Part shown: one piece after another, positions 2,136-52,756 of the stretch
Layout of the letters: each line of letters opens with the position of its first letter
Numbering within the stretch: position 1 is the stretch's first letter
Assembly (NCBI RefSeq): GCF_964194155.1
Contig: NC_135882.1
Span: 71,796,001-71,860,000, forward strand
Direction of reading: 5' to 3'
DNA length: 64,000 bases
Source of the DNA: Cetorhinus maximus
Lineage: Eukaryota
Program-made: the position numbers and the translations under genes
The notes under the pieces: model-generated
What the model was told of the DNA's origin: nothing
The model's input: only the letters and a program-made list of their open reading frames with translations
Databases searched by the model: none

Positions 2136-2245
2136 GATAAAAACAAATAACTGCGGATGCTGGAAATCCAGAACAAAAACAGAATTACCTGGAAAAACTC
2201 AGCAGGTCTGGCAGCATCGGCGGAGAAGAAAAGAGTTGACGTTTC
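2136..2245 (-). mobile_element. Penelope-like element terminal (pLTR) fragment, truncated at the hammerhead GAAAC
   Basis: Near-identical to the arm of 28124-28365; minus strand reads GAAACGTCAACT...GGATTTCCAGCATCCGCAG..TTTGTTTTTATC. Confidence 0.75.
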
Positions 2246-2461
2246 CCTGCCCACCATGTGCTAATGTTGGGGGAGATGGGTGTGCAGCAGGGCCCCAGGA
2301 CATGTCCCATTGAGCTCCTTTTTCACCCACCCCATCCAGACAGCCACCTCTTACCACTGTTCCCAAAGTTAGTTGTTGTGATATGCCAATGATAGCAGCC
2401 ACAATGTCCCTGAATGTTAAAATTGAAAGTAGAGGCTTCCTCTTAATTTTAAATTCTTTCA

Positions 2462-2595
2462 TAGAGTGTGGATGTTGCTAGCTAGGCCAGAATTTATTGC
2501 CCATCCCTAATTGCCCTTGAGAAGGTGGTGGCGAGCCGCTTTCTTGAACCGTTGTAGTCCATGTAATGTAAGTACACCCACAGTGCTGTTAGGAT
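2462..2595 (-). mobile_element. LINE 3' end fragment (CR1/L2 group, second tail type)
   Basis: GCTAGGCCAG.ATTTATTGCCCATCCCTAA..CCTTGAGAAGGTGGTGG shared with 27570-27880. Confidence 0.65.
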
Positions 2596-2827
2596 TTCAG
2601 CTTAACCAATTAATTGCTGAAGGACTCAGTTTTACCCATAGCTTCAGTGAAAGAGTTGGTGCCATCTTCAGAGCTTTGGGGCAGCTTTTACCCTGTCACT
2701 TTGGATGATGCTGGTGTGGTTCCATGGCAACAGTGCCTGGAACTTCCAGGAGACACTACTGGGCTCTCACTTGTTGGAAGGTATCCATCTGGGAGCCCAG
2801 CATGGATAGATAATGATCTCAACCTTG

Positions 2828-3176
2828 TGTCATGAAAAGCCGATTACCGCCACAAATTACTTAACAGGCATATTGAACTTTTTAAGGAAGACTTGTGTGT
2901 TTTTAAAGAAATACAAGCAAGGACACTGAGCAGAAGCTGGCTAATAATGTAAAGTGATCATTTTCTGGAAAACTCCTATGTGGATTATTCTGACAGGCCT
3001 GTTCTGCGAGCACATGGAATGTCTCACCAGGAAAGGTGACATGGTCTTCTTCAAGCAGAAACACTTGAAAGGGAGACAGGAAAAGGCAAAAGACTGAATA
3101 TCACATTTCAGCAGTCATCTAAAATTCTTCTCCTGTTGATTTATATCTCGGAATATGTAAAGTGTTTGGAGATGAA
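2828..3176 (+). mobile_element. 5' LTR (type A), first ~350 bp, of a Gmr1-like Gypsy element
   Basis: Starts TGTCATGAAAAGCCGATTAC; colinear with 13585-13933 (TGTCAAGAAAAGCCGATTAC...GGAGATGAA). Confidence 0.85.
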
Positions 3177-3190
3177 TCTCTCTCTCTCTC

Positions 3191-4147
3191 AAATTATGAC
3201 AGTTCATTTCCTAAAAAAAGAGGGAGGTGTAAGGAAAACAAGAAATTGCAACATTTTTCTTCTGGCAATAAACCTGGCATATTTTCTTATGTACTGGAAG
3301 TCAAGCTGTAATTGGATTAAGAGCTAGAGTGACAGAAAGAGTCTAAAGTCAACAGTAAGAAGTTGTTTTGTTATGTTAATGAACCAAGAGGAACTTCAAT
3401 CAGAGTTTTACATAAAGCAATAACAGAAATAGCTTGAATTGAGTTGTTTTAGTCCAAAGGGGGGATGTATGCAGGTTGTAAAAAGGTGTTGGGAAGTGAG
3501 GTAAACATACAGTAAGTTTGTTTTTACAAGTCTAATAGCTAAAGTAAAGAATGATTTAAGCAATTCTGAGAAGAAAGCATTTCTGAAGGGACAGGCTGAA
3601 ACAATTGAGAGATCAAAGGGAAGGTACGCATTTGAGGAAATACAGAAGCCTATGTGAGGGGCTAACTGATTAGATCTCCCAGAAGGCAGCAGGATAGCTT
3701 GGCAGAACTCCAAGAAGACAGTGTGAACAAGGTCAGACTGGGAGAACCAGTTGCTGTCAGCCTCAGAGGACACTCCAAGGAAAAAAAGCACAGTGCGATA
3801 AAAATTACTAGAAAACTATAGATTTTAAAATCTATAAGGATAGTTGCTGGACAGAAAAGGGGAGGGTTAGCTCTAAGGGTAGTTAAGTTAAGATCTTGTG
3901 GAACTGTTTTAAAATACTGTTTTCTGGGTGAAACCATTCTAGTATTTAAGTGTAATTGTGTTTTTTTCTTTATTTTTTTAATAAACATTTACTCTACTAT
4001 AAAATCATCACAAGTAGTCGGGGACATAATTTCCTGATTTCAGAACTTCTCATTCTATGCAAATTGCACAAACCATTTTGGCAGCAGTTTCAAGTTTCCC
4101 TCTGGGATTTGAGCAGCTCAGCATTTACCATCCTCCATGCCATAACA
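3191..4147 (+). mobile_element. PPT plus LTR (type B, 3228-4147) of a different Gypsy element
   Basis: AATTATGAcaGTTCATTTc..AGAGGGAGG|TGTAAGG parallels 541-580; TAATTGGATTAA and 3' AAGTTTCCCTCTGGGATTT..ATAACA shared with LTR 576-1279. Confidence 0.7.
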
Positions 4148-6965
4148 GGGGTACTTAGGCTTAGAATTTCGCCCAAAAGCCAGAAAACCCAAAATTTTAA
4201 ACGGGGTGGCCAACAGTTTACAAGTGGAAATTGAGGATAATGAAATGGATAGAGTAGCAATAGAGAGATTAAAATTGGAGCAGTGAAAATTAGAATTTCA
4301 GGAAAGAGAAAAGGAAAGCGGGACAGAGAAAGAGGAAAATGACAAGGAAAAGGAGAAAGAGGAAAGGCAGGAAACGGCACAGAGAAGAGAGAGAATTTCA
4401 GGTCTAGAGAAGGAAAGGGAGTTTAAACTAAAACAGTTCGAGCTGAGGGGCAGGAATCCTACTGTGTACCTTGAAGACACCACAAGCTCAGACTTAAGGG
4501 CTGAGGCAACCCGGTTTGCTCATTTAATCCCTAAGTTTGATGAAGCAGAGGTGGAAACCTTCTTTATCTCCTTCGAGCAGTTAGCACGGCTATTAAAGTG
4601 GCCAGTCCAACGTTGGTCCCTACTTCTGCAAAGCAGGCTTTCAGGAAAAGCTCATGAGGTTTACTCCCTTGCCTGAGGAAGGTGCGGCTGACTATGAGGC
4701 AGCAAAAAGGGTTAATTTAATATGCACAAATTTATTGTAACACCCAATCCAAGTATTTATGTGGCTCGTCCATGTTGTGACTTAACTCCAGGAGTGACCA
4801 CAACCAAGGGAAGTGACTCAGGTGAAAGCGGAGCTCAGGAATAACTGACCATGACCCTCGATGTCTACCAAGCATGAATGTTCATCACATAGGTGCTGAT
4901 GATGACTATGTAGCCAATCACATAGTTAGTGGTCCGAAGTCCTACCCTGAATTACATCATATGATCATGATGCCATCTTTATTAATTAATTACATTAACA
5001 TAGGAAAAGTCACTTTAGTTGACTTATGTTTATAATTAATATCATGCACCCACCACCCAAAATAATGACAAAGGTAACTGCCAAAATCATTATGCTAGAC
5101 TAACATGATCACCGCACATATATAAACAAATTATCCACCCTACCCGCCCACCAGGGATTAGGAGCTGGACTTCTCACTCTGGAGATATATAATACTCTTC
5201 TCGTAGCACCTTCCCGTCCTTCATCTTGGGTCTTGCGATATCAAACCAGAGCATACCGAGGTGTACCATCAGCAATTCCGTACCTCCAGGAAATGACCTG
5301 ACTAGACATACCTGGAATTTGAAAGGCTTAAGCAACTTGTTTTTGACCAGTGGGTACAGGCACTTAAAACAAAAGCCACTTATGAAAATCTCTATGAAAT
5401 AATCCTCCTTAAGGAGTTTAAAAACTCCATATTCTTCCCAATAAGAACACACCTAAAGGAGCAGAGGGTACCAGGGGCCAGGGAGGCAGCCAAAATAGCT
5501 GATGATTATGAGCCGATCCACAAACCCTGTCCCAGAAGAGGCCCTCCCCAAGTCAACCCCAACCAAATGGAAAGCTTAGAGTCGGAAAGAGTGATAGAAA
5601 ACTAAGTACCCATGGGCGAGAAGGAGATGCTGGGGGGCCCTCTTCAGGTCGGAAAGGTTGATGCTGAGCGAAAAAGTGAGGTCAAGAAGCCTGTGTGTTT
5701 TAACTGCCTAAAGTTAGGGCACCTCTGGGCCAGCTGCTGGAGGTTATGGGAAAAACCAGTGGGATTAATCGGGGCAGAGAATGAAAGTCAGTCAGAGAGC
5801 ATAGCAGACCAGGCTATGGCTCTGACTGCGGCTGCAGATCCCCGTAGGTGCACTCCTGAGAGTGCAGATGAGGCTAAACACATCCCTGAGAGTTACAAGG
5901 ATTTTGTATTTGAAGGAAGGGTGGCCGCATATCCCCAGGATGAGGCGAATAAGCCTGTAGTGATACTGAGGGATACAGGGGCCAGTCAAACTCTACTGTT
6001 GGGAAAAGGCATGACCTTTCCACCAGAGAGTGCACTAAGTGCCAACATGTTGGTAAAGGGGATTGAAGGAGGGTACATGCCCATCCCCTTGTACCGGGTG
6101 CATCTGGAGTGAGACCTTTCGTCAGGACCAGTGACCATGGGAGTCATTCCCAGTTTGCCTGTGGTTGGGGCCAACCTGCTTCTCAGAAATGACCTGTCGG
6201 GATCAAAGGCCATAGCATCCCCAGTGGTCTCTGAGGTCAAGGAGACAGAACAGCTGCAGGGGAAAGTGTCTGACATTTTCCCTGACTGCGTGGTAACATG
6301 GTCTATGGCCAGACAAGCTCTGTCAGTGGAGGCTGAAGTGGCACCACAGAGAGAAGACCCTACAGTCTGGTTATCTGAAACCTTTTTTGGGAGTCTAGAA
6401 GACCCTAAGGAGGTAATAAGTAGATCTTCCTTGGTAGCGGCTCAAGCAAGCTGACTCACTGTTAAAAACATTAACTCAGACTTTCCACACTGAAGCTAAG
6501 GCAGAAGCAGTCCCTGAATGCTATTACATTAAAAATTAGGTGCTAATGAGGAAATGGAGACACCCCTCACAGACCTCCAAATGAGCAGTGGACAGTGATT
6601 CATCAGGTAGTGGTGCCGCCAAGGTACCATAAGGAAATATTACAGCTAGCTCAAGAAATTATATGGCTGGACATGTTAGTATACACAAAACCCAAGACAG
6701 CATTTTTACTGGCCATACCTCTATGGGGATGTAGTTAAGGTTTTGCAGAACCTGCCACACCTGCCAGGTTGTGGGAAAACCCCTAGCCTGCAATAAAACT
6801 TGCACCCATGATTCCTGTGCCGGCTTTGGGGAATCATTCAGCAAGGTGTTAGTGTATTGTATAGGCCCCCTGCCCAAAAGGGGGCTACCGGTATATCCTT
6901 ACCATCATGGATGTGGCTACCTGCTTCCCAGAGGCTATTCCCCTGAGAACCATATCTTCTATGAT
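4148..6965 (+). mobile_element. Gmr1-like Gypsy gag, protease and integrase N-terminus (pseudogenised)
   Basis: Gag IPKFDEAEVETFFISFE..W...LLQSRLSGKA; zinc knuckle CFNCLKLGHLWASC; protease LRDTGASQTL; integrase HHCC remnant (AGH...CRTCHTCQVVGK). Confidence 0.9.
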
Positions 6966-8705
6966 TAACAGTGAGAGAGCAAGAGGAGCAGTGTGGCCAT
7001 TAACAGTGAGAGAGTGAGAGGAGCAACGAGGCCTTTAAAAGTGAGAGAGCGAGAGGACATACGAACATACAAAATAGGAGCAGAAGGAGGCCATTCGGCC
7101 CCTCGAACCTGCTCTGCCATTCAATAAGATCATGGCTGATCTGTTTGTGCTTTGAATTCTACATTCTTATCTACCGCCAATAACCTTTGATTCCCCTGCC
7201 TAATAAGAATCTATCTCCCTCCACCTTAAAAATATTCAATGACCCCACCTCCTCTGCCTTCAAAGGCAGATCCGCAAAACCCTCAGAGAAAAAAATTCTC
7301 CTCATCTCTGTCCTAAAAGGGCAACCCCTAATTTTAAAACTGTAGCCCTTAGTTCTGGACTCACCAACAAAAGGAAACATCCTTTCCACATGCACCTTGT
7401 CAATACCATTCAGGATCCTATATACTTCAATCAAGTCACCCCTCACTCTTCTAAGCTCCAGTGGAAACAAGCTCAGCCTGTCCAACCTATCCTCATGAGA
7501 CAACTTGCTCATTTCAGGTATCAATCGAGTATACCTCCTCTTAACCGCCTCCAACCAATTTACATCCTTCTTTAAATAAGGAGACCAAAACTGCACACAA
7601 TATTCAGATGTGGTTCCACCAATGCACTGTATAACTCAAGCATAACATCCTTATTTTTATGTTTAATTCCTCTTGTAATAAAGGATAGCATTCCATTAGC
7701 TTAATCGTCCTTCTTGATTACTTGCTATACCTGCATGCTAAGATTTTGTGACTCACGCATGAGAACAACTAGATCTCTCTACAGCTCGGAATCCTGCAGC
7801 CATTAAAGAAATACTTTTTAAAATTCTTCCTATCAAAATGAACAACTTCACACTTTGCTACATGATACACCACCTGCCAGATTTTTGCCCACTCACTCAA
7901 ACTATCTATATCCATCTGCAACCTCTTTATGTCCTTTTCACAACATAGTTTCCTACCTATCTTTGTGTCATCTGCAAATGCCTTAGCTACCATGCCTTCA
8001 CTCCCCTCATCCAAGTCATTGATGTAAATTGCAAAAAGTTGAGGCCCCAGCACAAATCCCTGTGGGACTCCATTTGTCACATCCTGTCAATCAGAAAAAG
8101 ACCCATTTATGCATACTCTCTGTTTTCTGCCAGCCAGCCAATCTTCTATTCAGGTTAATATGTTACCCCCTACACTATTCGCTTTTATTTTCCGCAATAA
8201 CCTTTGATGTAGCACCTTATCAAATGCCTTCTGGAAAATCCAAGTACAGCACGCCTACAGGCTCCCCTTTATCCATGGAGCATGTTACCCCTTCAAAGAA
8301 CTCCAATAAATTGGTTAAATATGATTTCCCTTGCACAAAACCATGCTGACTCTTCCCGATTAATTTGAGTTTCTCTAAGTGCCGGGCTATAACCTCCTTA
8401 ATGATCAATTTTAAAACCTTCCCCACAACAGAGAAGCAGGGCCATTAACATTGAGAGAGTGCAAGAGGAGCAGTAGGGCCAATAACAGTGAGAGGGTGAG
8501 AGGAGCAGTGGGACCTTTAACAGTGAGAGAATGAGAGGAGCAGCAGGGCCATTAACAGTGAGGGAGTGTGAGAAGCAGCATAGCCATTAACAGTGAGAGA
8601 GTGCGAGAAAAGTGAGAGACCATTAAAGAGCATGGAGAGAGAGGTGAGAGACCATTAAAGAGTGCGAAGACAGAGGCGAGAGACCATTAAAGAGCGCAGA
8701 GAGCA
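6964..8705 (+). repeat. Purine-rich tandem array (~33-bp then ~28-bp units) at the CR1 5' end, split by a nested CR1
   Basis: Units GCCATTAACAGTGAGAGAGTGAGAGGAGCAG... at 6964-7057 and 8431-8615, then GACCATTAAAGAG.. units to 8705. Confidence 0.85.
7058..8430 (-). mobile_element. 5'-truncated CR1 LINE (RT and 3' UTR) nested in the tandem array
   Basis: ORFs 8220-8426, 7769-8080 (GVPQGFVLGP, FADDTK) and 7171-7596; tail CATACGAACATAC. Confidence 0.92.
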
Positions 8706-10746: not shown

Positions 10747-11820
10747 TAGAGAGTTGGGATAAGGGGGGCATTTTCAGGATGGCAACCTGTAACTAGTGGA
10801 GTGCCACAAGGATCAGTGCTGGGGCCACAATTATTTACAATATATATTAATGACTTAGATGAGGGAAGTGTAAGTACTATCGACAAGTTTGCAGATCACA
10901 CAAAAATAGGTGGGAAGGCAAATGGTGAGGATGACACAAAGAGACTACAGAAGGATATAGACAGGTTAAGTGAATGGGCAAAAGCTTGGCAGATGGAATA
11001 TAATGTGGGAAAATGTGAGGTTATGCACTTTGGCAGGAAGAATAGAGGAACTGAATATTATTTAAATGGAGAAAGACTGCAGAAAGCTACAGCACAGTGG
11101 GATTTGAGAGTCCTCGTGCTTGAATCCCAAAAAGCTAACATGCAAGTTCAGCAGGTAATAGGTTAGGCAAATGGAACGTTGGCCTTTATTTCAAAGGGAA
11201 TGGAATATAAAAATAGGGAAGTCTTGCTAAAACTATACAAGGCACTAATTAGACCACACCCAGAATATTGTGAACAGTTTTGGGTCCCCTTATCTAAGGA
11301 AAAATATACTGGCATTGGAGGCAGTCCAGAGAAGGTTCATTAGGTTGATCCTGGGTATGGAGGGACTTTCTTATGAGGAGAGGTTGAGTAGGTTGGGCCT
11401 GTACTCATTGGAGTTTAGAAGAATGAGAGACGACTTTATTGAAATGTATACGATTCTTAGGGGGCTTGCCAGAGTAGGTGCTGAGAGGTTGTTTCCCCTT
11501 GTAGGAGAGTCTAGGACCAGAGGGCATAATCTCAGAGTAAGGGATCACCCATATAAAACAGAGATGAGGAGGAATTTCTTCTGTCAGAGGGTAGTGAATC
11601 TGTGGGATTCTTTACCGCAGAGGGCTGTAGAGGCTGGGTCGTTAAGTATATTTAAGGCTGACATGGACAGGTTTTCAATCAGTAAGGGAATCAAGGGTTA
11701 TGGGGAAAAGGCAGGAAAGTGGAGTTGAGGATTATCAGATCAGCCATGATGTCATTGAATGGCAGAGCAGATGTGGTGGGCCAAATGGCCTTCTTCTGCT
11801 CCTACGTCTTATGGTCTTAT

Positions 11821-13470
11821 AACAGTGGTAAGGGAATTAACCCAATTCTTTAACAGGCTTTGGCCGCCTACCAAGATCCTGTCTGATCAGGGCTCAAATT
11901 TCATACCCAAAATATTCCAGCAAGTCATGGGTAATCTAGGCATGACTCAGTTGAAGTCTTCAGTGTATCACCCACAGTCACAGGGGGCGCTGGAACGGTA
12001 CCACCAGACCCTAAAAACCATGATCAGGGCATACTGCCATGAGTACCATGACTGGGATAAAGGACTGGGTTTTCTTCTGTTCACCACCAGGTACTCACCC
12101 AATGACTCCACCTGTTCTACCGCTTGAATTAATTTACAGGCACCAAGTGTGGAGGTCCCCTGAAACTAATCAAGGAGAGGTTTTTTAGAACAGAAGGAGG
12201 AACTCTCCATGTTAGACTACATAACGGTATTCCAGGAGCGACTCATAAGAGCCTGTGATATAGCCCGAGAACACTTAAAAATCTCTCAGACAGCTATGAA
12301 GAAACAGGCAGACGTGCCAGGGCCAAACCTTTCAGCGTGTTAGTGCTCCTACCAATACCAGGTGAAACTTTAAAAGCTCTCTTCAGGGTAGCAAAGAGGT
12401 TCGGGGAAGTAAACTATCTAACTGAGACCCCAGATTGGGGGATAAAGCAAATGCTGCATCACGTCAACATGATAAAGCAATATCACGGCCGAGAAGGGGT
12501 CAAGCAGTTAACAGTCTGTCCCATTGCCACTGACCTAGAGGATAAGGGTAGCAGTGGGGATGAATTGGAGGGCGACATGGACGAGGCCTACATTGAGCCC
12601 CCTACTACCCGGCTAACCAACACAGAGATACTAGCAAACCTATACTCCTTATTCACCCACCTAACTGTAGAACAGTGAGCAGACTTGACAAGCCAGGCTG
12701 CATCACACTAGCTCTACATGATGTGGATGTGGGGGAGGCCCCTCCCATAAGGCAACATCCCTATCGTCTAGGCCCAGAAAAGCTGGCCCAGGTTCGGGAA
12801 GAGATTAACTACTTGCTGGAGCACCAACTAATAGAGCTTACTCGCAGTTGCTGGTGCTCCCAGGTTGTGCTTGTGCCCACAAGGTTCTGCATTGACTACC
12901 AAAAAATTAATACAGTGACTAGAGCCGACTCCTACATGATAACCCGCCTGGAAGCCTACCTAGATATGGTAGATAAAGCAGCCTACATTACAAAGATAGA
13001 TTTACTCAAGGGATACTGGCAGATTCCCTTAACTGCCCACGCGAAGAAAATCTCTGCGTTCCTAACTCCGGATAGCTTATACCAGTGTCAAGTCATGGCA
13101 TTTGGACACCAAAATGCCCCAGCCACCCTTCAAAGAATGATGAACCAGGTAATGGTGGGCTTATCCAATTGCGTAGTGTACCTAGCCGATCTCCTAGGGT
13201 ACAGCAACACCTGGGAAACTCACTTAGAGCAACTGGAAGCCCTTTTCCAGAAAATACAATCACCTGACATAGTGGTCAATCTCGCAAAGTGTGAGTTCAC
13301 TAAGACTCAAGTGACCTATCTAGGACAGTAGTGGGTCCAAGAATAAGCCCAGAGCCACGACGATGCAAGCAATAGCACAGTTCCCCATTCCCACAACAGA
13401 ATGGGAAATCATGAAGTTCTTGGGGATGTGTGGGTTCTACTGCAAGTTCGCCCCAAATTTCAGCACAGTA
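11821..13470 (+). mobile_element. Gmr1-like Gypsy integrase core, then reverse transcriptase (pseudogenised; RNase H deleted)
   Basis: SDQGSNF, YHPQSQGALERYHQTLKTM; then HDVDVGEAPPIRQHPYR, RFCIDYQKIN, KIDLLKGYWQIPL, VVYLAD. Confidence 0.92.
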
Positions 13471-13584
13471 GCCTGAACTTAAAGTGACTCGGTTAGAACT
13501 GAAGAGATAATATTAACCAAGGCTAGGAGAATGAATGTGTGTGTGTGTTTGTTGAATCTCATTTCATTCAGGGTGCAGGGGAAG

Positions 13585-14296: not shown

Positions 14297-14299
14297 AAT

Positions 14300-14860: not shown

Positions 14861-14892
14861 CTCCTCAATGTACTCAATGTAATATTGGCAGT

Positions 14893-16199: not shown

Positions 16200-16890
16200 G
16201 CAGCAATTATGATCTAAAGTTGTTGAACTCAATGTTGAGTCCAGAAGACTGTAGAGTGCTGAGTTTAAAAATAAGGTACTGTCTCTTGAGCTTGCATTAA
16301 GCCTCACTGGAACACTGTTGCAGGCCATGGACTGAAAAGTCAGCATAGGAACAAGGTAAAAGATTAAAGTGACAAGCAACTGAAAGCTCAGGGCTGTGCT
16401 TGTAGACTGAACAAAGGTATCCTGCAAAGCAGTCACCCAGTCTGCGCTTGATCTCCCCAGTATTGAGGAGACCACGTCATGAGCAGCGAATGCAGTATAC
16501 TAAATTAAAAGAAGTATAATTAAATTGCTGTTTCACTTGGAAGGAAAGTTTGGTGGCTTGGACAACGAGAAGGGAGGAGGTGAAAGGACAGGTGTTGGAT
16601 CTCCTGTCCTTGCATGGAAAGGTCCCAAAGGGAAGGGAGAGGTTGTTAGGGGTGACTGAGGAGTGGGCTAGGGTGTTGTGGAGGGAACAGTCCCTATGAA
16701 ATGCTGAAAGGGGAGGGCAGAGGAAGGTGTGTTTGGTGGTTGCATCACATTGGAGCTGATGGAAATGGCAGAGGATGATCCGTTGAATATGGAGGCTGAT
16801 GGGGTGGAAAATTAGGACAAGGGGAACCCTATCATGATCCTGGGAAGGAGGGAAGAGGTGAGAACAAAAGAGTGTGAAATGGATCAGACA
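16200..16890 (-). mobile_element. Penelope-like retroelement C-terminal region (linker and GIY-YIG endonuclease), degenerate
   Basis: DRVPLVLIFHP..IQRII..HF..LQ.D, GTFPC..R...TCP, NLVYCIRCS*..LL..GE.KRRLGD.F; GLNIEFNN-like end near 16220. Confidence 0.82.
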
Positions 16891-19322: not shown

Positions 19323-21174
19323 AGAACCATAGAACCATAGAAAAGTTACAGCACAGAAGGAGGCCATTCAGCCCATCTTGTCCATGCCAGCCTGAGGACA
19401 CCCAGGTGCCCTTTCTAATCCCACCTTCCTGCACCTGGTCCATAGCGCTGCAGCTTACAGCACTTTAGGTGCAGATCCAGGTACTTTTTAAAAGAGTTTA
19501 AAAAGTTTCTGCCTCTACCACCAACTTGGGCAGCGAAGTCCAGACACTCACTACCCTCTGCGTAAAAAAGTTCTTCCTCATGTCCCCCCTACACCTTCTG
19601 CCGCTTATCTTGAATCTATGTCCCCTGGTTCTAGAATTTTCCACCAAGCGAAACAAATTTATCCTGTCCACTCTATCTATTCCCCTCATAATTCTGTACA
19701 CCTCAATCAAGTCACCTCTCAGCCTTCTTTGTTCTAAGGAAAATAACCCCAACCTATCCAATCTCTCCTTGTAGCTACACTTTTCTAACCCTGGCAACAT
19801 TCTTGTAAACCTCCTCTGCACTCTCTCCAGAACTATTACGTCCTTCATGTAATGTGGTGACCAGAATTGCACACAATACTCCAGTTGCGGCCTCACCAGT
19901 GTTTTATACAATTCCAACATTATATCCTTACTTTTATATTCTATACCTCTGCCAATGAAGGAGAGGATTCCATATGCCTTCTTTACAACCTTGTCTACTT
20001 GAACTGCTGCCTTCAGGGACCTGTATACTTGTACGCCAAGATCTCTCACTTCATCTACCCCTCTTAGTATATTCCCATTTATTGTGTAATCCCTGTAACT
20101 GTTTGACCTCCCTAAATGTATGACCTCACACTTCTCTATGTTAAAATCCATCTGCCACTTTATCGCCCACTCCACCAACCCATCTATATCGTTTTGGAGA
20201 TTATGGCTATCCTCTACACTATCCACTACTCGGCCAATCTTTGTGTCATCTGCAAATTTCCCAATCGTGCCCCCCACGTTCACGTCCAAATTGTTAACAT
20301 ATAACACAAACAGTAAGGGCCCCAACACCGAGTCCTGTGGAACACCACTTGAGACAACTTTCCATTCGCAAGGGCATCCATCGACCATTACCCTTTGTTT
20401 CCTGTTACAAAGCCAACCTTTTATCCAGTTTGCCTCATTACCCTGAATCCCATGGGCTTTTACATTCCTGACCAATCTGCCATGTGGGACCTTGTCAAAT
20501 GCCTTGCCAAAATCCATGTACACAACAACCACTGCACTACCTTCATCAACCCTTCTTGTCACTTCCTCAAAGAATCCAATCAAATTTGTGAGGCAAGACC
20601 TTCCTTTAACAAGTCCATGCTGACTATCCCTGACTAGTCCGTGCCTTTCCACATGACAGTTAATCCTATCTCTCAGGATTGATTCTACTAATTTGCTCAT
20701 CACCGATGTAAGACTAACTGACCTATAATTATTTGGCATTTCCTTTGATCGCTTTTTAAACAATGGAACTGCATTTCCATTTCTCCAGTCCTTCGGTACC
20801 TCCCCTGTATCTAGTGAAGATTGGAAAATCATCCTCAGAGCATCTGCTATCTCCTCCCTGACTTCCTTCAGCAGCCTCAGAAACAATCCATCTGGCCCTG
20901 GTGACATATCAACTTCCAAGGGTTTCAACCCTTCGAGTACTTCCTCTCTCTTTATGACTATCCCATCCAATATCTCGCAGTGTTCCTCCTGGACTACTAT
21001 ATCTACATCCTCCCTTTCCTTTGTAAACACGGAGACAAAATATTCATTCAAAATCCCTCCCACAGCCTCTGCCTCTACACACAAGTTTCCATCTTCATCT
21101 CTGATAGGTCCCACTTTTTCCTTAACTAACCTTTTAGCATTAATGTATTGGTAAAAGCATTAATGTATTGGTAA
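19323..21174 (-). mobile_element. Young 5'-truncated CR1 LINE with an uninterrupted 538-aa RT region
   Basis: ORF 19498-21114 with SPGPDG, QHGLVKGRSC, GVPQDSVLGP, KFADDTK; tail TAGAACCATAGAACCATAG. Confidence 0.95.
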
Positions 21175-26090: not shown

Positions 26091-26640
26091 AGTTACCCAG
26101 ATGTTAGACAGATGTAACAGCCAGCTAAGTACATCAGAACTGCCTGATGGTCTCCTACTCTAATACAGAGTGAGAGACATCTGCGGAGGATCCTGGGGAG
26201 CAGGGGAGTTGCCATTGGAAGTTGAAACAAAGATACATTGTTAAGAAACCATTCCAGGACAGCAAAAGGAACCGATATCGGAAAATGCTTGGTGGGCCAA
26301 ACAAGCCAGAAAGCTTCAAGTCTACGCTGATGAGCACAACATGAATAATTTCTTTAAGCCCTGAAGACTGTGTATGTATGCTCACCTGTTCTCAATGCTG
26401 TTGGGAATCTTTCCTGATGGACAGGACCGTTATCAAAGAGGAACCAGATAGGAATGTCATCGCTTTCTAGGTGTCAAATATTCTGCTGCAATTCCTGACT
26501 TTCACAACCAGAAAGAGATTTCAAAAAAAATTTCAACATAATGGAGGTAAGTTGTTTATCAATTAAAGAAACAAGCTATCAAATTGTGCATTGCTTCTAG
26601 TCTTTAAGGAACTGTTATGGACAGGAGGGGGTGTAATTTA

Positions 26641-27060
26641 AAAGCAAAATTCTGCGGATGTTGGAAATCTGAAACAAAAATAAAAATAGCTGGAAAAATT
26701 CAGCAGGTCTGACAGCATCTGCGGAGAGGAAGATAGTTAACGTTTCGAGTCCGTATGACTCTTCATCAGAACTGAGGAAAAATAGAAATTAGGTGAAATA
26801 TAAGCTGGTTGAGGGGGATGGGACAGGTAGAGCTGGATAGAGGGCCAGAGATAGGTGGAGGCAAAGAAGAGATTGCCAAAGATGTCATAGACAAAAGGAC
26901 AAAGGGGTGTTGACGATGGTGATATTAGCTAAGAAATGTGCTAATGGTGACATTAAGGGTAGAAAGCAGAACTAGCAAGTGACAGATAGCCCTAGTGGGG
27001 GTGGGGTGGTGGGGAAGGGATCAAAATAGGCTAAAACGTGGAGATGAAACAATGGATAAT
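26641..27060 (-). mobile_element. Penelope-like pLTR copy with hammerhead ribozyme
   Basis: Reverse complement matches 31798-31981; imperfect TAATT(T)AAA duplication at the junctions. Confidence 0.8.
26735..26773 (-). ncRNA. Minimal type-I hammerhead ribozyme, core intact
   Basis: Minus strand AGTT-CTGATGA-A-GAGTC-ATACG-GACTC-GAAAC-GTT-AACT: stem I AGUU/AACU, core CUGAUGA..GAAA, stem II GAGUC/GACUC, palindromic ACGU helix III. Confidence 0.8.
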
Positions 27061-28121: not shown

Positions 28122-28365
28122 ACCAAAATAAAAACAGAATTACCTGGAAAAACTCAGCAAGTCTGGCAGCATCGGCGGAGAAGAAATCAGTCAACGTTTC
28201 GAGCCCTCATGGCCCTTCAGCAGAAGGGCCATGAGGGCTCGAAACGTTGACTGATTTCTTCTCCGCCGATGCTGCCAGACTTGCTGAGTTTTTCCAGGTA
28301 ATTCTGTTTTTATTTTGTTTTGGATTTCCAGCATCCGCAGTAGCTTTTAGCTTTTTGTTTTTATC
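28122..28365 (+). mobile_element. Fold-back Penelope-like insertion: perfect 95-bp inverted repeat with 14-bp TSD
   Basis: Arms 28124-28218 and 28223-28317, loop AGCA; TSD GATGTATATTCCTT at 28108-28121 and 28366-28379. Confidence 0.92.
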
Positions 28366-31797: not shown

Positions 31798-31981
31798 ACC
31801 ACCTATCACTGGCCCTCTATCCAGCTCTACCTGTCCCACCCCCCCTGGACCAGCTTATATTTCACCTCATTTCTCTATTTCCTTAGTTCTGATGAAGAGT
31901 CATACGGACTCGAAATGATAACTGTGTTCCTCTCCGCAGATGCTGTCAGACCTGCTGAATTTTTCCAGCTCTTTTTGTTTT
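31798..31981 (+). mobile_element. Penelope-like pLTR insertion with a mutated hammerhead (31885-31923) and 11-bp TSD
   Basis: TSD TCTCCAGTGCT at 31787-31797 and 31982-31992; AGTTCTGATGAAGAGTCATACGGACTCGAAATGATAACT. Confidence 0.88.
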
Positions 31982-32234: not shown

Positions 32235-33176
<942 letters not shown>

Positions 33177-39130: not shown

Positions 39131-39923
39131 AGAATCAAACAGGCTGGCCTGCTTTCCTTCAGATAGATTGACCTCTTGTTATTGGCTGGTGTTCTCTTGA
39201 GGAAAGGATGTTTCCATTTTTAGCACCTGCTAATTCAAAATGAACCAGGATATGTCTGCTGTCTGTCCATTCTTTTGCTATAACGTGGCGACGTATAATC
39301 CATATTCCATTTTTACATATATAGTTTGAAGCGAGATGAATCTTGGACCCATTAGAATTACAATGAATAACTTTATGCCTTTTTTCTACAACAATACATT
39401 GTGTTTCATGTACACCCACTGATGGATCCAAAACAGCTCCGATTGTTTCAGCTCCACTGAGATCACTCAAAAGATGTGCTGAAGCAATGGAATAATGTTT
39501 CTGCTTGTTGACTCCAATGTAACACTTCATAGATAATTTTAATGTAACAAGCCAGGCAAGAAAACCATTGATTTCAATGGAGAGTAAAATCAGGCAGGTA
39601 CCTGATTCTGTTGGCTTCCCGATAGGTGGGTAAGCTTTAGAATTACTTCCGAATTGGAGTCTCCAGTTTCTTGCAATCCTTTGCACATTTTGCATTATAA
39701 GGCACAATATAGCTATAATTTTAACCTATTAATTAGAATGATTTTAGAATGGCCAGTAAGGGTGCATGGTCAGTGAGGGAGACTTCACCTGAGTGAGACA
39801 GAGACCGAGTGAGTGTAATTGAGAATTTGGTTCAAAGTGGGGATTCGGTACATAGGGGGAAAGAGGTGCTTTAGGTAAGGTTTACTGCAAGAAGTAGTGT
39901 GCTGAGTTGAGTTTGGTGAAGGG

Positions 39924-40076
39924 CTTACCTGGTGGGGGAGAGACCATGATCATGAAGGTAGTTCTCCCGGGACGAGGCTAGCCCATTGCACTTTGGGTGT
40001 GCTGACACCTGCGATCACCCCATATGCGGTATACTCGACTGCAAAATTTGTGGTAGTGGGGGACTGTGTTCACGCT
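39924..40076 (+). pseudogene. U1: U1 snRNA retrocopy, near full length
   Basis: CTTACCTGG..GGGAGAGACCATGATCATGAAGG..TTCTCCC, CCATTGCAC (U1A loop), Sm site AATTTGTGG, GGGGACTGTGTTCACGCT; lacks about the first 3 and last 8 nt. Confidence 0.95.
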
Positions 40077-40588
40077 GTAAGGATGTGATTGCACTAGAGA
40101 GAGTGCAGAGGAGATTTACCAGCATGTCGCCTGGGCTGGAGAGTTTTAGCTATGAGGAGAGATTGGATAGACTGGGGTTATTTTCCTTGGAGCAGAAGAG
40201 GTTGAGGGGCCACATGATTGAGATGTATAAAATTATGAGGGACATAGATAGGGTAGAAAGGAAGGAACTTTTCTCCTTGGTGGAGGGATCAATAACCAGG
40301 AGGCATAGTTTTAAGGTAAGGGGCAGGAGGTTTAGAGGGGGTGTGAGGAGGAATATTTTCATCCAGAAAGTGATGGGAATCTGGAACTCACTGCCTGAAA
40401 GGGTGGTAGAGGCAGAAGCCCTCATAATATTTAAGAAGTAGTTGGATGTGCACTTGCGATGCTATGGCATACAAGGCTATGGGCCTAGTGCTGGAAAATG
40501 GGATTAAAATAGTTAGGTACTTGTTTGACTGGCGCAGACTCGATAGGCCGAAGGGCCTTTTTCTGTGCTGTAGACCTCTATGACTCTC
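40077..40588 (+). mobile_element. CR1 3' fragment fused directly to the U1 copy
   Basis: KDVIALERVQRRFT...WNSLPERVVEA; tail CTCTATGACTCT. Confidence 0.93.
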
Positions 40589-43500
40589 TGGTGGTGAGGA
40601 GATGCTTTTTTCTTCAACTCTTTTTCAGCCTCCAGTATTTGATTTCCACTTTGGTGCAGCAGAAGGAGTAGGTAAATCAGTAACTGGTATTATTAGAAAC
40701 TGTGAGTTTTATCAATATTGTAAAGTTTACTAGCAGTGCCAAAACCTATTGGGAGGTGTAGGCTTTATTAATTGTAAATTAATTAGCAATTATTAATTAA
40801 CACATATTGGAGATGGCAGGGCAGATGTCATGCTGCGATTGCAGGATGTGGGAGCTACTGGACACCGGTGTGATCCAGAGTTATTGAGCTGGAAGCCGAG
40901 CTGCAGACATTGCAGCACATCAAGGAGGGGGAAAGTTACCTGGATGCTTTATTCCAGGAGGCAGTCACACCCCTTTGGATAGGGTCTTCTGATTTGGTCA
41001 CTGGTCAGGGACAGTAGGATGTGACTGTAAATGAGACAGGTAAGGGAACCCACAGGGTAGGAGCGCAGGAGCCTCGGCCAATGCAATTGTCCAACAAGTT
41101 TGAGGTTTTTTCAGTTTGTTTGGATGAGGGTGGAGGCCGCAGGGTGGATGAGCTAACTGGCCATGGCACCATAGTACAGGAAGCCATTCACATAGGGGGA
41201 GGAACAAGGAATGTAGTAGTAGTAAGGGACAGTATAGTTAGAAGGATTGACATCATTCTCTGCAGCAAAGCGCGTGAGTCCAGATGGCTGTGTTGCCTGC
41301 CTGGTGCTAGGGCTTAGGACCTCTGCTTGTGGATGGAGAGCAACTTGCAGTTGCAGGGGGAAGACCCAGTTGTCATGGTCCAAGTAGGTACCAACGACGT
41401 AGCCAGGACAAAGAATGAGGTTTAGTACGAGGAGCTTGACACCAAATTAGGAAGCAGAACCTCAAAGGTCATAATCTCTGGATTATCACCTGAGCCACAT
41501 GCAGATTGGCAAAGAACAAATCAGATTAGGGAGATGAATGCATGGCTTAAAGACTGGTGTGGGAGAAGTGGGTTCTGGTTTATGGGGCACTGGCACCAGT
41601 ACTGGGGAAAGTGGGAAATGTACCGTTGGGACAGTCTGCACCTGAACAGTGCTGGGACCAGTGTTCTTGTGAGCCACATAGCTAGAGAAGTAGAAAGGGT
41701 TTTAAACTAAGTAGTGGGGGCAAGGGATCAAATTTGGGAAGATGTGGTAAACCAAAGAGTAGAAACAAGACAAAAGAGAAAGCTATTATTACAGGAAATT
41801 AAAACCAGACCATGACAGGAAGGGATAGAGAGTACAAACCTAACAAATCCAACAGCTGAGACTAGAGGCTATAAAAAGAATAAAAGGACAAAACTAAAGG
41901 TCCTGTATCTGAATGCACAAAACATTCGAAACAAAACAGATGAACTGAGAGCGCACATAGAAATAAATAAGTACGATTTGATAGCCATTATGGAGACATG
42001 GCTGCATCAAGATATGGATTGGGACCTGAATATTGAAGGTTACAGGACATTTAGGAAGGACAGGAAGCAAGGAAAAGGTGGAGGGGTGGCTCTGTTAGTT
42101 AATGATGGTATTAGCACAATTGAGAGGAATGACCTAAGTTCAGGAAACCAGGGTGTGGAAACGGTTTGGGTAGAAATGAGAAACGGTAAAGGCAAGAAGT
42201 CACTTGTGGGAGTCGTGTATAGGCCCCTTAATAGTAACCGTATAGTAGGGTGGAGCATAAAGGAAGAAATAATAGGAGCTTGTCAGAAAGACAGGACGAT
42301 AATCATGGGAGATTTTAATCTACAAATAGACTGGAAAAGTCAGATAGGCAAAGATAACCTAGATGAGGAGTTCATAGAAAGTTTTTGGGATAGTTTCTTA
42401 GAACAGCACGTTCTGGAGCCAACCAGGGTGCAGGCTATACTAGACCTGGTATTATGCAATGAGATGGGATTAATTAATGATCTCATAGTGAAGGTGTCCC
42501 TAGTAGCAGCGACCATAATATGATTGAATTTTACATTCAGTTTGAGGGAGAGAGGAGTGGGTCCAAGACCATGTTTTTAAACTTAAATAAGGGCAATTAT
42601 GAGGACATGAAAGCAGAGCTGGCTAAAGTGAATTGGCAAATTAGGTTAAGGGATAGATGAATAGAGATGCAGTGGCAAACATTTAAGGGGATCTTTCAGA
42701 ATACACAGTATAGATACATTCCAACAAGTAAGAAAAAGTCCAAGGGATGGACACACCATCTGTGGTTAACTGGAAAAGTTAAAGATAGTATCAGACTTAA
42801 AGAAAATACTTATAATTGTGCAAAGACAGATGGAAGGTCATAAGATTGGACAGAATATAAGGAACAGCAAAGGATGACTAAGAGATTAATAAGGAGGGAA
42901 AATTCAGAGTACGAGGGAAAGCTAGCCAGAAATAGAAAAACAGATAGTAAGAGTTTCTATAAATATTTAAAAAAGAAACAAGTTAACAAAGTGAGCGTTG
43001 GTCCTATAGAAAATGAGTCTGGAGAATTGATAATGGAAAACCCAAGGAGATGGCAGATGAATTCAACAGGTTTTTTGCAAGAGTATTCACTATAGAGGAT
43101 ACAAGTAACATCCCAGAAGCAGCTGTAAATCAGGAAATGGAAGGGAGGGAGGAACTCAGGAAAATTACAATCACCAGAGAAATAGCACTGAGTAAATTGT
43201 TGGAACTGCGGGCTGACAAGTGTCCGGATCCTGATGGACTTCATCCTAGGATGTTAAAAGAAGCGGCTAGTGAGATAGTGGATGCATTGGTTTTAATTTT
43301 CCAAAACTCCCTAGATTCGGGGAAGGTCCCATTAGATTGGAAGATAGCAAATCTAACTCTGCTATTCAAAACAGGAGGGGGACAAAGCAAGAAACTACAG
43401 GCCATTTAGCTTAACATCTGTTGTAGGGAAAATGTTAGAAGCCATTATTAAAGAAGTTATAGCAAGGCATTTGGATAAATCCAAGGTCATCAGGCAGAGT

Positions 43501-46367: not shown

Positions 46368-46689
46368 GATGAATGTAGCACATATCCTTCGTAGTGACTA
46401 TATTGTTTTTTGCCAGCTGAGCAATGTTGCCCTTTTCTGATGAGGAACGTTGTTTTTATTTTCATTCTCATCAAGCGACTTATAGTGGCCTCTAGAGCTT
46501 AAGATAGCGACCTAAAAATTTTTTGACACTGTCTATATTATAGGTGTAAAACAGAAACCTAAACACACACTACAATCGTCAGCTTTGTTAAACTTCTTAC
46601 AGCCAGTTGGTAAAGGAAAAGACCAGATGTCAATCTTTACTCAGTTTTAGATTGACCACCACTGGTGCCAATAATATCCTCTTTTGAGC

Positions 46690-47320
46690 AAACAATAATC
46701 AAATTAATTAACAACCCCTTAAAGGGGCACTGGAGTCTACCTCAGCTGGAATGGAGATTGAGTCGTGTGTTGTAGCTGTTAATCTAATCCACATACCAGC
46801 TCTCAAGCCAATGGAGTTAACTGGCTTAAAATGTGACCCTGGAACTAAAAGTCCATTATGTATCAATTCAATTGAGCTACCTGGGCTGTGTCTCTTTATA
46901 CTCTTTAGTATATCAATAAAACAAATGAACAAATTAACTAATGACAAGCCCATTAAAGGGGCACTGTAACAAACACAAAACTATAATAGAAACTTATTAC
47001 ATTAAAATGACATTTTTGGGGGAGATGAGGCACTCCATTCCCTGTGGTGCCCACTTGTTGCAGAAGGCAATGCCTTTTATTTATTTTTTGAGTAAACTAA
47101 CCCAAATAAACAAATTAATTAGTTAACAATCCCAGTGTCTGTTTATACTCTTGTGTAAAATCAAATAAACTAATTAATGATTTAACTGCCCCTTAAAGAT
47201 GCACTAGAACAAAAACAAAACTTTAAAGGAAACTTAACAAATTAAAATAACATTGACATTGACTGTAACTAAAAGCAAAAACTTCAACAGAAACTTGTCA
47301 AAATTAAATTAAAATAATAT
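46690..47320. repeat. Imperfect ~200-230-bp modular repeats (probable Tx1-like 3' UTR or target array)
   Basis: AAATTAA..AAC..CCC(T/A)TTAAAGGGGCACTG at ~46703, ~46931, ~47165; GTGTCT(C/G)TTTATA at ~46888, ~47135, ~47763. Confidence 0.5.
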
Positions 47321-47730
47321 TTTGGAGTCTGGTGATGCCCTGTGGCATCCACCAATCACAGAAGCCCTCAAGCATACAGGCAGACACCGGGTGCTTCCTC
47401 TCCAAGGACATCAGGGCTAGATGTAACCACTGGAGAGAGGCAGATAGTCAGGCCAAACAACCGCCTCGCTGCCTGGGCCTCTTAATGGCCGCCTTGACCA
47501 GGCCCAGGAGCAGGCTTACGAGAAAGTCCTCCTCCCTCCATGCCCCCCTCCATACCGGGTGACCAAAGATCAGGAATGTGGGGCTGAAGTGCAAACAGAA
47601 CTTGAGGAGCAGCTCCCTCATCAAGTGGGACAGGGTCTGTAAGCTCACACACCCTATGAAGACGTGGAACATGGACTCCTCGAGTCTGCAGAAAAGACAG
47701 GTGGCTTGGGATACTCTTTTGAGGAATCTA
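47320..47730 (-). mobile_element. L1/Tx1-clade LINE ORF2 C-terminal fragment
   Basis: CCHC-type CLFCRLEESMFHVFIGC followed by FSPTFLIFG..LLLGLVKAAI. Confidence 0.7.
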
Positions 47731-48904
47731 ATAAACAAATGAACAACCTCTTAAAGAGGTGGGTGTCTCTTTATATGTGTACACGTAATCCTTCAATGAG
47801 TGCCCCTCTACTTCTAGACACTTAACCATAATTTATACAATTAGTGAGCACAGCCCACATATTCCATTACCGCCAGGCATGTTGATAAATACAGAATTGT
47901 AGGCCTCCAGGTGTTATGCAAATAGAGGGCATAAAATCTTTTCAAGACCTCTTCCTCAAAAAAGCTGTCAGTCAGGTTACCATATTGCTTATCCAGTCAT
48001 CTTCAAAGGAATTGCTGGAGACTACCATCAAAAAGGTAAGTGGAACCACAATTCTATTGCAGTCTCTGTTGTCGGCATCCAAACTGTCCCCTACCAGCCA
48101 CCTCCCTCCTCCCCCATTCTTCTCCCAGGACCTACCTGAGGGCCACTGCTAGTGATGCAGTGTTGTAAAATTTAACTGCACCAGCAAGCTGTTTGGGGTC
48201 ATACAGCAGGCGTCTATAGCTTGCTGGTCTAATTTAAATAAAGCCTGAGGCTCAATATTGAGCGTGCCATGGACCTATTCGTCCCAGCACAAGGATGGCT
48301 TCCTGCACATAGTTCATGTTGGTAGGTCGGCAATATCCAGTTTCAACCAGTCTTCGTAAAGTAATCATCCATTACTGCTCACGCTGTCTGCCAGTTTTCA
48401 GAATAACATCTCGCCATGATTCTTGAAACTTCTTCAAATCGAAGCATCCACATCTTCAAGATCCATCAGTTTGTCTGGAGCTGCCTCTAACCTGGTAACT
48501 TCCAAGGCTGAGGGAGAACTTATTACAGCTGTATATCTCTTGTGTTGTTTATGCATTTTGGTTGACATATTAACCCAATGAGATAAACTGGATGATGTTT
48601 GTCTTATGGTAGGAGACAACAGAATGTCTTAATGACAAATATTATGGTTTGGGTCGTCTTCCTACAATTTAACTTGTGTTTAAAAGGCAGCTTTCATAAG
48701 AAGACCATCTCATGCAAAACCTGTACTCGTATGCATGCACTAGTGGAATAGCATGCTACAAGGCTACCATTTATCCTTTACTATATCTGGCAAGGTCAGT
48801 TTATCATTCTGCCAGCAAGGATTTGGACCCCGCATAGCTAGTTCCAGGAACTTTCAGCTGGTGTCTCTAAAACAGCCCTATAGTGTAAACAGAAATAATT
48901 TTTA

Positions 48905-51690
48905 GATAAGATAAGACAAGATGTAGGAGCAGAAATAGGTCATTCGGCCCATCGAGTCTGCTCCACCATTCCACGAGATCATGGCTGATCTGATAATCCT
49001 CAACTTCACTTTCCTGCCTTTTCCCCATATGCCTTGATTCCCTTACTGATTAAAAATCTGTATCTTAGCCTTGAATGTACTTAATGACCCAGCCTCTACA
49101 ACCCTCTGCGGTAAAGAATTCCACAGATTCACCACCCTCTGAGAGAAGAAATTCCTCTTCATCTCTGTTTTAAATGGACGCCCCCTTACTCTGAGATTAC
49201 GCCCTCTGGTCCTAGATTCTTCCACAAGGGGAAACAACCTCAGCATCTACCCTGTCAAGCCCCCTAAGAATCTTATATGTTTCAATAAAGTGGCCTCTCA
49301 TTCGTCTAAACTCCAATGAGTACAGGCTCAACCTCTTCTCATAAGAAAATCCCTTCATCCCTGGGATCAACCTAGCAAACCTTCTCTGGACTGCCTCCAA
49401 TGCCAGCACATCTTTCCTTAGATAAGGGAACGAAAACTATTCACAGTATTCTAGGTGTGGCCTAATTAGTGCCTTATATAGTTTTAGCAAGACTTCCCTA
49501 TTTTTATACTCCATTCCCTTTGAAATAAAGGCCAACGTTCCATTTGCCTCACCTATTATCTGCTGAACTTGTATGCTAGCTTTTTGGGATTCATGAGGGC
49601 CCCCAAATCCCTCTGTGCTGCAGCTTTCTTCAGTCTTTCTCCATTTAAATAATATTCTGCTCTATTCTTCCTGCCAAAGTGCATAACCTCACACTTTCCC
49701 ATATTTATATTCCATCTGCCACAATTTTTGCCCACTCACTTAACCTGTCTATATCCATCTGTAGACTCTTTGTGTCATCCTCACCACTTGCCTTCCCATC
49801 TATTTTTGTGTCATCCACAAACTTGGCGATAGTACATTCATTTCCCTCATCCAAGTCATTAATATACATTATAAATGATTGTGGCCCTAGCACTGATCCT
49901 TGTGGCACTCCACTAGTTAAAGGTTGCCATCCTGAAAATGCCCCTCGTACCCCAAATCTCTGTCGTCTATTAGTTAGCCAGTCCTCTATCCATACTAATA
50001 TACTGCCCCCAACACCATGGGCTCTTATCTTATTAAGTAGCCTTATGTGTGGTACCTTATCAAACACCTTTTGTAAATCTGAATATATTACACCTACTGG
50101 TTCCCCTTTACCTATCATGCTTGTTACCTCCTCAAAGAATTCTAATAAATTTGTCAGGCATGATTTCCCCTTCATGAAGCCATGTTGACTCTGCTTTATT
50201 AGATTATGCATTTCTAAATGCTCTGCTAATATGTCCTTTAAAATAGACTCCAACATTTTCCCAATGACAGATGTTAAGCTAACTTACCTATAGTTACCTG
50301 TTTTTTGCCTCCCTCCCTTTTTGAATAAGGGTGTTACATTGGCAGTTTTCCAATCCTCTGAAACTTTTCCAGAATCCAAGGACTCTTAGAAGATTACTAC
50401 CAGTGCACCCACTATCTCTGCAGCCATTTCCTTTAAGATCCTATGATGCAACCCATCAGGTCCAGGGGACTTATCAGCCTTTAGCCCTATTAGTTTCCCT
50501 TCCACTTCTTCTCTAGTGATAGTTATTGTATTTATTTCCCACCCCTTTTTGCCCCATGATTATTTAGTATTTTTGGTATACTATTAGTGTCTTCTACCAT
50601 GAATGCAAAGTATTTATTCAACTCCTCTGCCATTTCCTGGTTCCCCATTATTATTTCCCCAGCCTCATTCTCTAAGGGGCGTATACTGATTTTGGCACCT
50701 CTCTTTTTATATATTTAAAGAAGCTCTTACTCTCTGATTTTATATTACTTGCTAGTTTACCCTCAAAGCTTATTTTCTCCCTCCTTATTATTTTTTGGTC
50801 ATCTTCTGTTGGCTTTTAAAACTTTCCCAATCCTCTTGCTTACCACCAATCTTTGCCACATTTTATGATTTTTCTTTCACTTTGGTACTGTCCTTAACTT
50901 CCTTGGTTTATCCCCTTCCTACAATCCTTCTTCCTCACTGAGATATATCTTTGTTGTGAATCATGAACTATTTTCTTAAACGTCTGCCATTGTTCATCAA
51001 CCGCCTTTTCTGCTAAGCTGCTTTCTGAGTTCACTCCAGCCAACTCTGCCCTCATTTCTTTGTAATTACCCTTATTTAATTTTAGCACAGATGTTTCCAA
51101 ACTAAGTTTCTCACACACAAACTGAATGCTAAGTTCCACCATGTTATGGTCACTGTTTTCTAGGGGATCTTTTATTCTGAGATCATTTATTAAACCTGCC
51201 TCATTACACATTGCCAGATCCAAAATAGCCTGATCCCTGGTTGGATCCACAACATATTGTTCTAGGAAACTGTCCCGAATACACTATGAATTCTTGCTCG
51301 TGGATACCTCTGCCAATTTGATTTTCCCAATCTACATGAAGATTAAAATCACCCATGATTAATTCACTGCTTTTTTTACGTGCCCTCATTATTTCCTGAT
51401 TTATTCTCTGTCCGCCAGCATAGCTACTGTTAGGGGGCCTATAGATTACTCCCACCAGTGTTGTCTTCCCCTTGTTATTTCTTACCTCCACCCATGTGGA
51501 TTCTACACCTTCCGATCCAACATCATTTCTTGCTATCGCACTTACTCCATCTGATAATAACACCCTTTCCTTCCTTCCTACCTGTCTCGAAAAGTCACAT
51601 ACCTCTGAATATTTAGTTCCCAACTTTGATCTCCTTGTAATCGTGTCTCCGTAATGGCTATTAGATCACACCCATTAATCCCTATACTTA
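48905..51690 (-). mobile_element. CR1 LINE ORF2 (EN and RT) with 3' UTR, pseudogenised
   Basis: DLIAITETRLQ, GVIYRPPNS, IMGDFN, PLENSDHNMV, QHGFMKGKSC, GVPQGSVLGP; same subfamily as 9490-11820. Confidence 0.93.
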
Positions 51691-51834
51691 AGTGATGTTT
51701 ATGGAGCTGATCATGTGACTTATTGACATCATCCAAAGACTTTGTTGTCCATTCTGAAACCCTGTTAAAATTTCTAATCATAATTTCATAGTGAGGCAGC
51801 ACAATATCATAAAATAATATGCATGTTTAAAAGA

Positions 51835-52267
51835 AATTTGCATATATACAGCACCTTTCATGGGCTCAGGATATTCCAAACCACTTTACATAGCCAATTA
51901 AATGTTTTTGAAATGTAGCCGCTGTTTAACATAAGGAAGCACAGCAGCCAATCTGTGCACAAGGTTCCACAAATAACAATAAGGTAATGACCAGATCATT
52001 TATTTTAGTGATGTTGGTTGAGGGATAAGTGTTGGCCAGGCCCCCGAGGAAAACATCTTTGAATAGTGCTGGGAGATATTCGACGTCCACTTAAGAGGTC
52101 AGATGGAGCCTCGGTTTAGCATCTCATTCGAATGACAGCATCTTTGACAATGAGGGAGTGCTGCACTACTACACGGAAGCACCAGGCCAAATTGTGTGCA
52201 CAAGTCTCTAGAGAGGCACTTGGACCCATTTTCTTCTGACTCAGCAGCAAGAATGCCACCACTGAGA
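51835..52267 (-). mobile_element. tRNA-derived DeuSINE (SacSINE1/AmnSINE1-like)
   Basis: Minus strand: CTCAGTGG box A, GGGTCCAAGTGCC box-B-like, Deu-domain-like CTGGCCAACACTTATCCCTCAACCAACATCAC, L2-like tail. Confidence 0.72.
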
Positions 52268-52664
52268 TAGCTAAACTTAATTTTTCTTCCACTTGAATTC
52301 ATGTGAAAACTTAAGTTGCCCTTTCTATTTTCTCTATGATGTTAGTTCATTTCTTTTCTATCGACTAGATGTTGGACAATATTCCTCAGCTAACAGGACA
52401 TAGATGGGTTCCTATTCCCAGGCCTTTGTCAATGTAACTTTGTAACCAACTGTTTAGCGTATGCAAGAGTCGCCTGATTTGAATTCCTCATTGATTTTCT
52501 ATGACTCCACACACCAGGAACCCTGTCACAAGTGTGAGAAGCAAGCCAATCATTCCAACTGCTACACAAATACACATGCACACTGTTAAACACAGACACG
52601 TACTTGTGCACAAAATCATAGGAATAATGGCTTAAGCTATTCTCCCAAATCCCAGTGACCTATA

Positions 52665-52756
52665 ACAAAAGCAGAAAATGCTGGAAATACTCAGTGGGTC
52701 AGGCAGCATCTTTGGAGAGAGAAACAGTTAATTTTTCAGGTTGTTGAGCTTTCATC
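52665..52756 (-). mobile_element. Old Penelope-like pLTR fragment with a decayed hammerhead
   Basis: AAAATGCTGGAAATACTCAG..GGCAGCATC..GGAGAGAGAAACAGTTAA..TTTC..TTCATC. Confidence 0.65.

Follow-up and report, generated by a model that had tools for sequence, protein, structure and literature searches.

A 64,000-nt stretch of the 4.0-Gb genome of Cetorhinus maximus (NC_135882.1; hereafter the window) carries five short insertions with a common 3' module of about 110 nt and a candidate hammerhead ribozyme, and they raise the question whether they constitute a transposable family of their own or are pieces of a larger, protein-coding element. A prediction made earlier from the same DNA (hereafter the original prediction) favoured the former, namely a non-autonomous family resembling short interspersed elements (SINEs) or retrozymes. 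Our analysis makes us highly confident of the latter: the five insertions (copies 1–5, Table 1) derive from protein-coding Penelope-like retrotransposons (Penelope-like elements, PLEs) of four subfamilies, as copies that are truncated or inverted at the 5' end, and the module they share forms the 3' end of the PLE terminal repeat (pseudo-long terminal repeat, pLTR), just behind a predicted minimal hammerhead. The genome was sampled at 340 loci, mostly chosen by searches.

Relationship of the insertions to protein-coding Penelope elements

The five segments are mutually related (pairwise blastn identity 74–92%, E-values 7e-7 to 1e-74), as had been claimed, and the reported 11- and 14-bp target-site duplications (TSDs), at copies 4 and 3, proved exact; inspection of the flanks revealed no convincing TSD at copies 1, 2 and 5. 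The Penelope origin, the existence of several subfamilies and their high abundance were likewise borne out: relatives in all four subfamilies run upstream into PLE coding sequence, and exact matches to one ribozyme or module word number 6,256 for the copy-1 subfamily (36-mer), of which copy 1 is 98% identical to members, 2,051 for the copy-2 subfamily (29-mer) and 2,843 for the copy-3 subfamily (ribozyme word). The 30 best relatives of copy 2 all share a common 3' end, with 5' ends scattered upstream of it, the nearest at about 200 nt and the farthest beyond 1,500 nt; all five long relatives examined enter the endonuclease code and one of them also the reverse transcriptase (RT) code. Longer copies (L002, L013, L017, L018 and L024) match copy 2 at 89–92% over its whole length before running on into endonuclease code, and copy 4 is 92% identical to copy 2. 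PLE protein matches (87–99% identity) were found within 1.5 kb at 7 of the 20 copy-1-subfamily loci read, and 5 of these lead directly into the module. The best relatives of copy 5 are 84–91% identical to it over most of the query.

The copies are thus collinear with coding elements, and the copy-3 subfamily has intact 3,291-bp tandem units. The first 100 of its word matches correspond to 68 loci, with 26 head-to-head pairs 38–5,272 bp apart and 3 tandems of 3,291–3,292 bp; a 924-codon stop-free frame is present in 6 of 20 loci that had been selected for head-to-head or tandem pairs. The 924-aa protein P0001 combines within one open reading frame, as is typical of endonuclease-containing (EN+) PLEs, an RT domain (RVT_1, aa 413–577, E-value 2e-6) and, at the C-terminus, a GIY-YIG domain (aa 827–862, E-value 4.5e-4), both scoring just under the Pfam gathering thresholds. 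Compared with the element in L121, the two arms of copy 3 show 98.7% identity over 150 nt and 100% over 102 nt. Judging from its sequence, the copy-3 subfamily is a young, autonomous PLE. The linker preceding the GIY-YIG domain of P0001 reads C-x4-C-x2-C, and a Zn-finger-like CX2-5CxxC linker in this position is described as a feature of Neptune that is also found in Nematis (PMC8557442; this and the other papers are cited from the parts of their text available to us). By that definition P0001 is of the Neptune or Nematis type; in vertebrates only Neptune and Poseidon PLEs are reported in bioRxiv 10.64898/2026.07.22.740005, and the elements probably belong to the Neptune clade.

Neptune-clade EN+ PLEs (PMC8557442; PMC3846280) are described as having, besides the frame and linker just mentioned, tandem or partial-tandem copies that form pLTRs, 5' truncation, an inverted 5' copy, an optional tail at one end and palindromes at inverted junctions, all of which we observe; the differences are a tail of about 45 nt here against 30–40 bp described, and that these are apparently new, host-specific subfamilies. 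A literature search carried out without Repbase and most subscription journals found no paper on them. Several points weigh against our interpretation: the Neptune assignment comes from a linker motif and not from a tree, PLE protein matches lie upstream in only 4 of 29 relatives in the oldest (copy-5) subfamily, many of whose members begin close to the ribozyme, and 340 loci picked mostly by searches leave room for a minor non-autonomous derivative.

Could the insertions instead be a SINE-like or retrozyme-like family built from pLTRs, moved in trans and giving rise to RNA that is self-cleaved or circular? Many copies are indeed very short, about half of the copy-5 relatives start within some 15 nt of the ribozyme core, one junction is common to 42 loci, and pLTR-derived retrozymes are reported from vertebrates, one cartilaginous fish included (bioRxiv 10.64898/2026.07.22.740005). 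However, neither length nor 5' end is fixed, all bases align to coding elements, and the common junction is found in either orientation and against several subfamily backgrounds. The pol III-derived head of a SINE is missing, as Rfam gave no tRNA, 5S or 7SL match at the copies. Non-LTR retrozymes (PMC7229834; bioRxiv 10.64898/2026.07.22.740005) resemble our copies in their type I hammerhead, pLTR-related sequence and co-occurrence with PLEs, but form short head-to-tail arrays in which every unit has a ribozyme, whereas here we see dispersed single or head-to-head pieces. The search for tandem copies proposed with the original prediction returned a single pair 88 bp apart among the 68 loci and none in the window, and same-strand pairs closer than 1.5 kb are few among the 340 loci and never exceed two copies. 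With scattered 5' ends, long relatives that enter PLE code and short tandems nearly absent, we regard a non-autonomous family as very improbable, and for copies 1–4 as largely refuted; the original prediction had itself named truncation of a PLE as the outcome that would speak against it, and this is how the copies read. The sole short dimer (L111:1495–1630) is an 88-bp head-to-tail duplication with two adjacent complete ribozyme motifs, which could be a seed for a retrozyme-like array.

State and fold of the predicted hammerhead

The original prediction described a hammerhead core with two different but pairing versions of stem II. Both pairs are present, GAGTC/GACTC in copies 2 and 4 and GGGCC/GGCTC in copy 3, but the motif is intact in copy 2 only: the 5' end of copy 1 lies 7 nt upstream of the predicted cleavage site, which leaves it without a core, copy 3 has a CUGCUGA core and no 5' strand of stem I, and copy 4 retains the core of copy 2 but has an altered palindromic stem III word. 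A loose core pattern has 13 matches in the window against 7.5 expected (5 of 100 shuffles), which is barely above chance, and an Rfam scan of the window revealed no hammerhead. Among 22 natural copies, hand-picked from the four subfamilies, 89.5% of stem I and stem II cells are paired, against 15–40% in slid controls, and double changes occur at 2 stem II pairs; these compensatory changes between subfamilies support the predicted fold, from few independent events, and agree with the earlier proposal of a minimal, dimer-type pLTR hammerhead. Minimal metazoan PLE hammerheads (PMC4209133), dispersed as many single motifs attributed to truncated PLEs and with weak activity as dimers, are likewise of type I, with an extra base between positions 9 and 10.1, a palindromic 15.2–16.2 word and a short stem I; the motifs described here differ in a 5-bp stem II and in position 6 of the young subfamilies.

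At that position the two older subfamilies (copy-2 and copy-5), which keep the CUGANGA/GAAA core, have A, and the two younger ones (copy-1 and copy-3) have C or U. In a phage hammerhead the A6C change slowed cleavage to below 0.1 per min (PMC3088659). In isolated truncated copies the ribozyme probably is a passenger; if it has a role, this would lie in tandem full-length transcripts, where it might act as a slow dimer. Assembled contigs from 4 of 23 sequencing runs, which we guess to be RNA, match along the 3,291-bp unit, although contigs cannot show ends, strand or circles; the self-cleaved or circular RNAs suggested by the original prediction gain no support from them.

Copy 3 and the origin of inverted insertions

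Near-identical copies of copy 3 (99–100%) occur on many contigs, and its asymmetric junction recurs at 42 loci. All 30 of these that were read in detail have different TSDs of 12–16 bp and lengths of 151–245 bp; the tail is always on exactly one arm, the right in 14 and the left in 16. Three or more subfamily backgrounds show this junction, and within any one locus the two arms agree. Amplification from one master copy would yield a single orientation, and the presence of the tail on either arm suggests that the copy-3 junction was likely formed anew at each insertion. Copy 3 folds as a single hairpin of about 95 bp (-194.8 kcal/mol, z -30), and we considered whether it represents a self-amplifying, palindromic family akin to miniature inverted-repeat transposable elements; the alternating tail, the varied lengths and the different subfamily backgrounds led us to reject this. 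Other short head-to-head joints also fall on self-complementary words of the ribozyme, 9 on a 6-nt and 6 on a 4-nt palindrome among the 50 loci listed of 60. Long inverted insertions combine two arms with unrelated, distant breakpoints within one TSD.

The simplest reading of these junctions is that each cut strand primes a cDNA of its own, begun at one of two start sites, and that the two products are subsequently linked. The GIY-YIG endonuclease of the element would cut the two target strands about 14 nt apart; the RT would initiate synthesis at either of two sites, so that the 40–50-nt tail is included or not, and would mostly stop early, leaving a short 3' piece. Both cut strands would often prime a cDNA, the two products being joined head-to-head, and the shortest cDNAs would be joined preferentially at self-complementary words supplied by the ribozyme. 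This double priming fits the in vitro results for the Poseidon protein, which cleaved and extended both target strands and started reverse transcription at two sites, by which the tail is defined (PMC11167929). The Poseidon element concerned, PAc of Anolis, also carries its ribozyme about 110–150 nt upstream of these sites; it belongs to another clade, and its frame starts inside the ribozyme, while here the first ATG is 153 nt after the predicted cut. On balance, and with some hesitation, we favour as a whole the view that a young Neptune element, still mobile and with a most recent lineage that spread with a weakened (A6C) hammerhead, has recorded in its thousands of near-identical insertions a double-primed mechanism that uses tail-started and tail-less cDNAs, with ribozyme words as favoured joints. 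What sits badly with it is the scarcity of microhomology at the long inverted junctions: of 21 loci, 4 were unresolvable and 1 mis-anchored, and among the 16 scored 9 have filler bases and 7 an overlap of 0–3 nt, so that annealing of palindromes accounts for the short junctions only. The filler in L123, L125, L129, L130, L133, L136 and L140 is 11–37 nt long, some of it apparently copied from nearby element sequence, and may reflect end joining of the polymerase-theta type.

Inverted copies could alternatively arise by fold-back self-priming of one strand or from an antisense template, as proposed in PMC3846280. The palindromic words at the short joints are what self-priming would lead one to expect. 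However, fold-back of a cDNA fixes the tail on one side of an asymmetric junction, at odds with the 14:16 distribution, and it does not readily join arms with distant breakpoints inside one TSD; we consider this origin possible but rather unlikely. A bolder idea, which we hold to be doubtful and less probable still, is that the shortest copies arose by reverse transcription of the 3' ribozyme cleavage product and hence form a genomic footprint of self-cleavage in vivo. The length of the module is close to the distance from the predicted cut to the end of the tail (117 nt in L121), and hand tallies make the first base after the cut the commonest 5' start, with 29 of the 100 arms listed of 151 in the young copy-3 subfamily and 26 of the 100 listed of 171 in the copy-1 subfamily. 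Several head-to-head joints have both arms ending at the cut with little homology, and 8 of 28 non-inverted arms start at the base after it, a weak excess at an AT-rich word (90 of the 100 listed arms gave 83 rows; 1 locus was a true duplicate, and 7 whose junctions matched those of earlier rows were left out). Yet the base after the cut accepts A or G, and stem I itself makes a 5-nt microhomology there; once the 9 and 14 joints for which microhomology or a deletion suffices are set aside, positions 32 and 33 together retain 23 and 13 arms, respectively, while elsewhere each position has about 8.5 and 9. A different joint with poor homology turns up 4 times in 50, copies running through the cut far outnumber starts there (2,843 against 151), and at core position 6 the young subfamilies carry C or U. 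Our test for a surplus of 5' ends at the cut did not establish one, the apparent peak being largely explained by microhomology, in agreement with PMC11167929, where read ends at the ribozyme cut were absent and ribozyme mutants inserted normally.

Setting in the window and significance

Table 1. Penelope-derived features of the window
Feature	Position	Strand	Description	TSD
Copy 1	2136..2245	-	3' end of a Penelope pLTR, truncated at 5', with tail; lacks core and stem II	
Coding remnant	16207..16862	-	Older Penelope remnant (Zn-finger linker and GIY-YIG endonuclease); no module after its stop codon	
Copy 2	26639..27057	-	5'-truncated Penelope 3' untranslated region/pLTR with tail	
Hammerhead motif of copy 2	26733..26775	-	Minimal type I motif, intact, with CUGAUGA core and additional A; stem I of 4 bp, stem II of 5 bp, palindromic word in stem III	
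Copy 3	28122..28365	.	244 bp; two ends of a young, autonomous PLE, fused head-to-head; tail on right arm, none on left	14 bp, exact (28108-28121/28366-28379)
Copy 4	31798..31981	+	5'-truncated, tail-less, copy-2 subfamily; motif 31883-31925 with mutated stem III word	11 bp, exact (31787-31797/31982-31992)
Copy 5	52662..52756	-	Old, degraded, tail-less; fourth subfamily (stem II AGGTC/GACCT type); in first intron of junctophilin gene	

The GIY-YIG Penelope remnant noticed in the original prediction is indeed present and is 68% identical in amino acids to residues 711–924 of P0001 (E-value 9e-74). The junctophilin gene is represented by its first coding exon (32598–33062, plus strand; best PDB match junctophilin-1, E-value 3e-83) and a likely second exon (56975–57760, plus strand); the likely start codon is some 700 bp downstream of copy 4, and copy 5 falls between the two exons. 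Most repeats of the window are fragments of long interspersed elements (LINEs), e.g. 19501–21159 (minus strand) and 41816–42520 (plus strand), which we take to be of the CR1/L2 type. A U1 small nuclear RNA-like copy (39921–40079, plus strand, 106 bits), probably a retropseudogene, is embedded in a LINE 3' piece that is presumably also CR1/L2-type. Broken retroelement coding remnants at 4287–6441 and 11759–13328, with gag/protease-like, RT and integrase-like frames, we assume to be gypsy-like LTR-retroelements. A 35-bp tandem repeat forms two separate blocks (6931–7090 and 8448–8642).

That Penelope terminal repeats carry hammerheads, and that truncated copies disperse them, has been known since 2014. 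The useful by-product of this study is a young, intact element with numerous recent insertions. It makes it possible to test how inverted ends and tails come about and whether, in view of the core change in the youngest lineage, the ribozyme is required at all. If true, double priming would explain the inverted pLTR and the one-sided tail of Penelope elements, both of which have long been puzzling.

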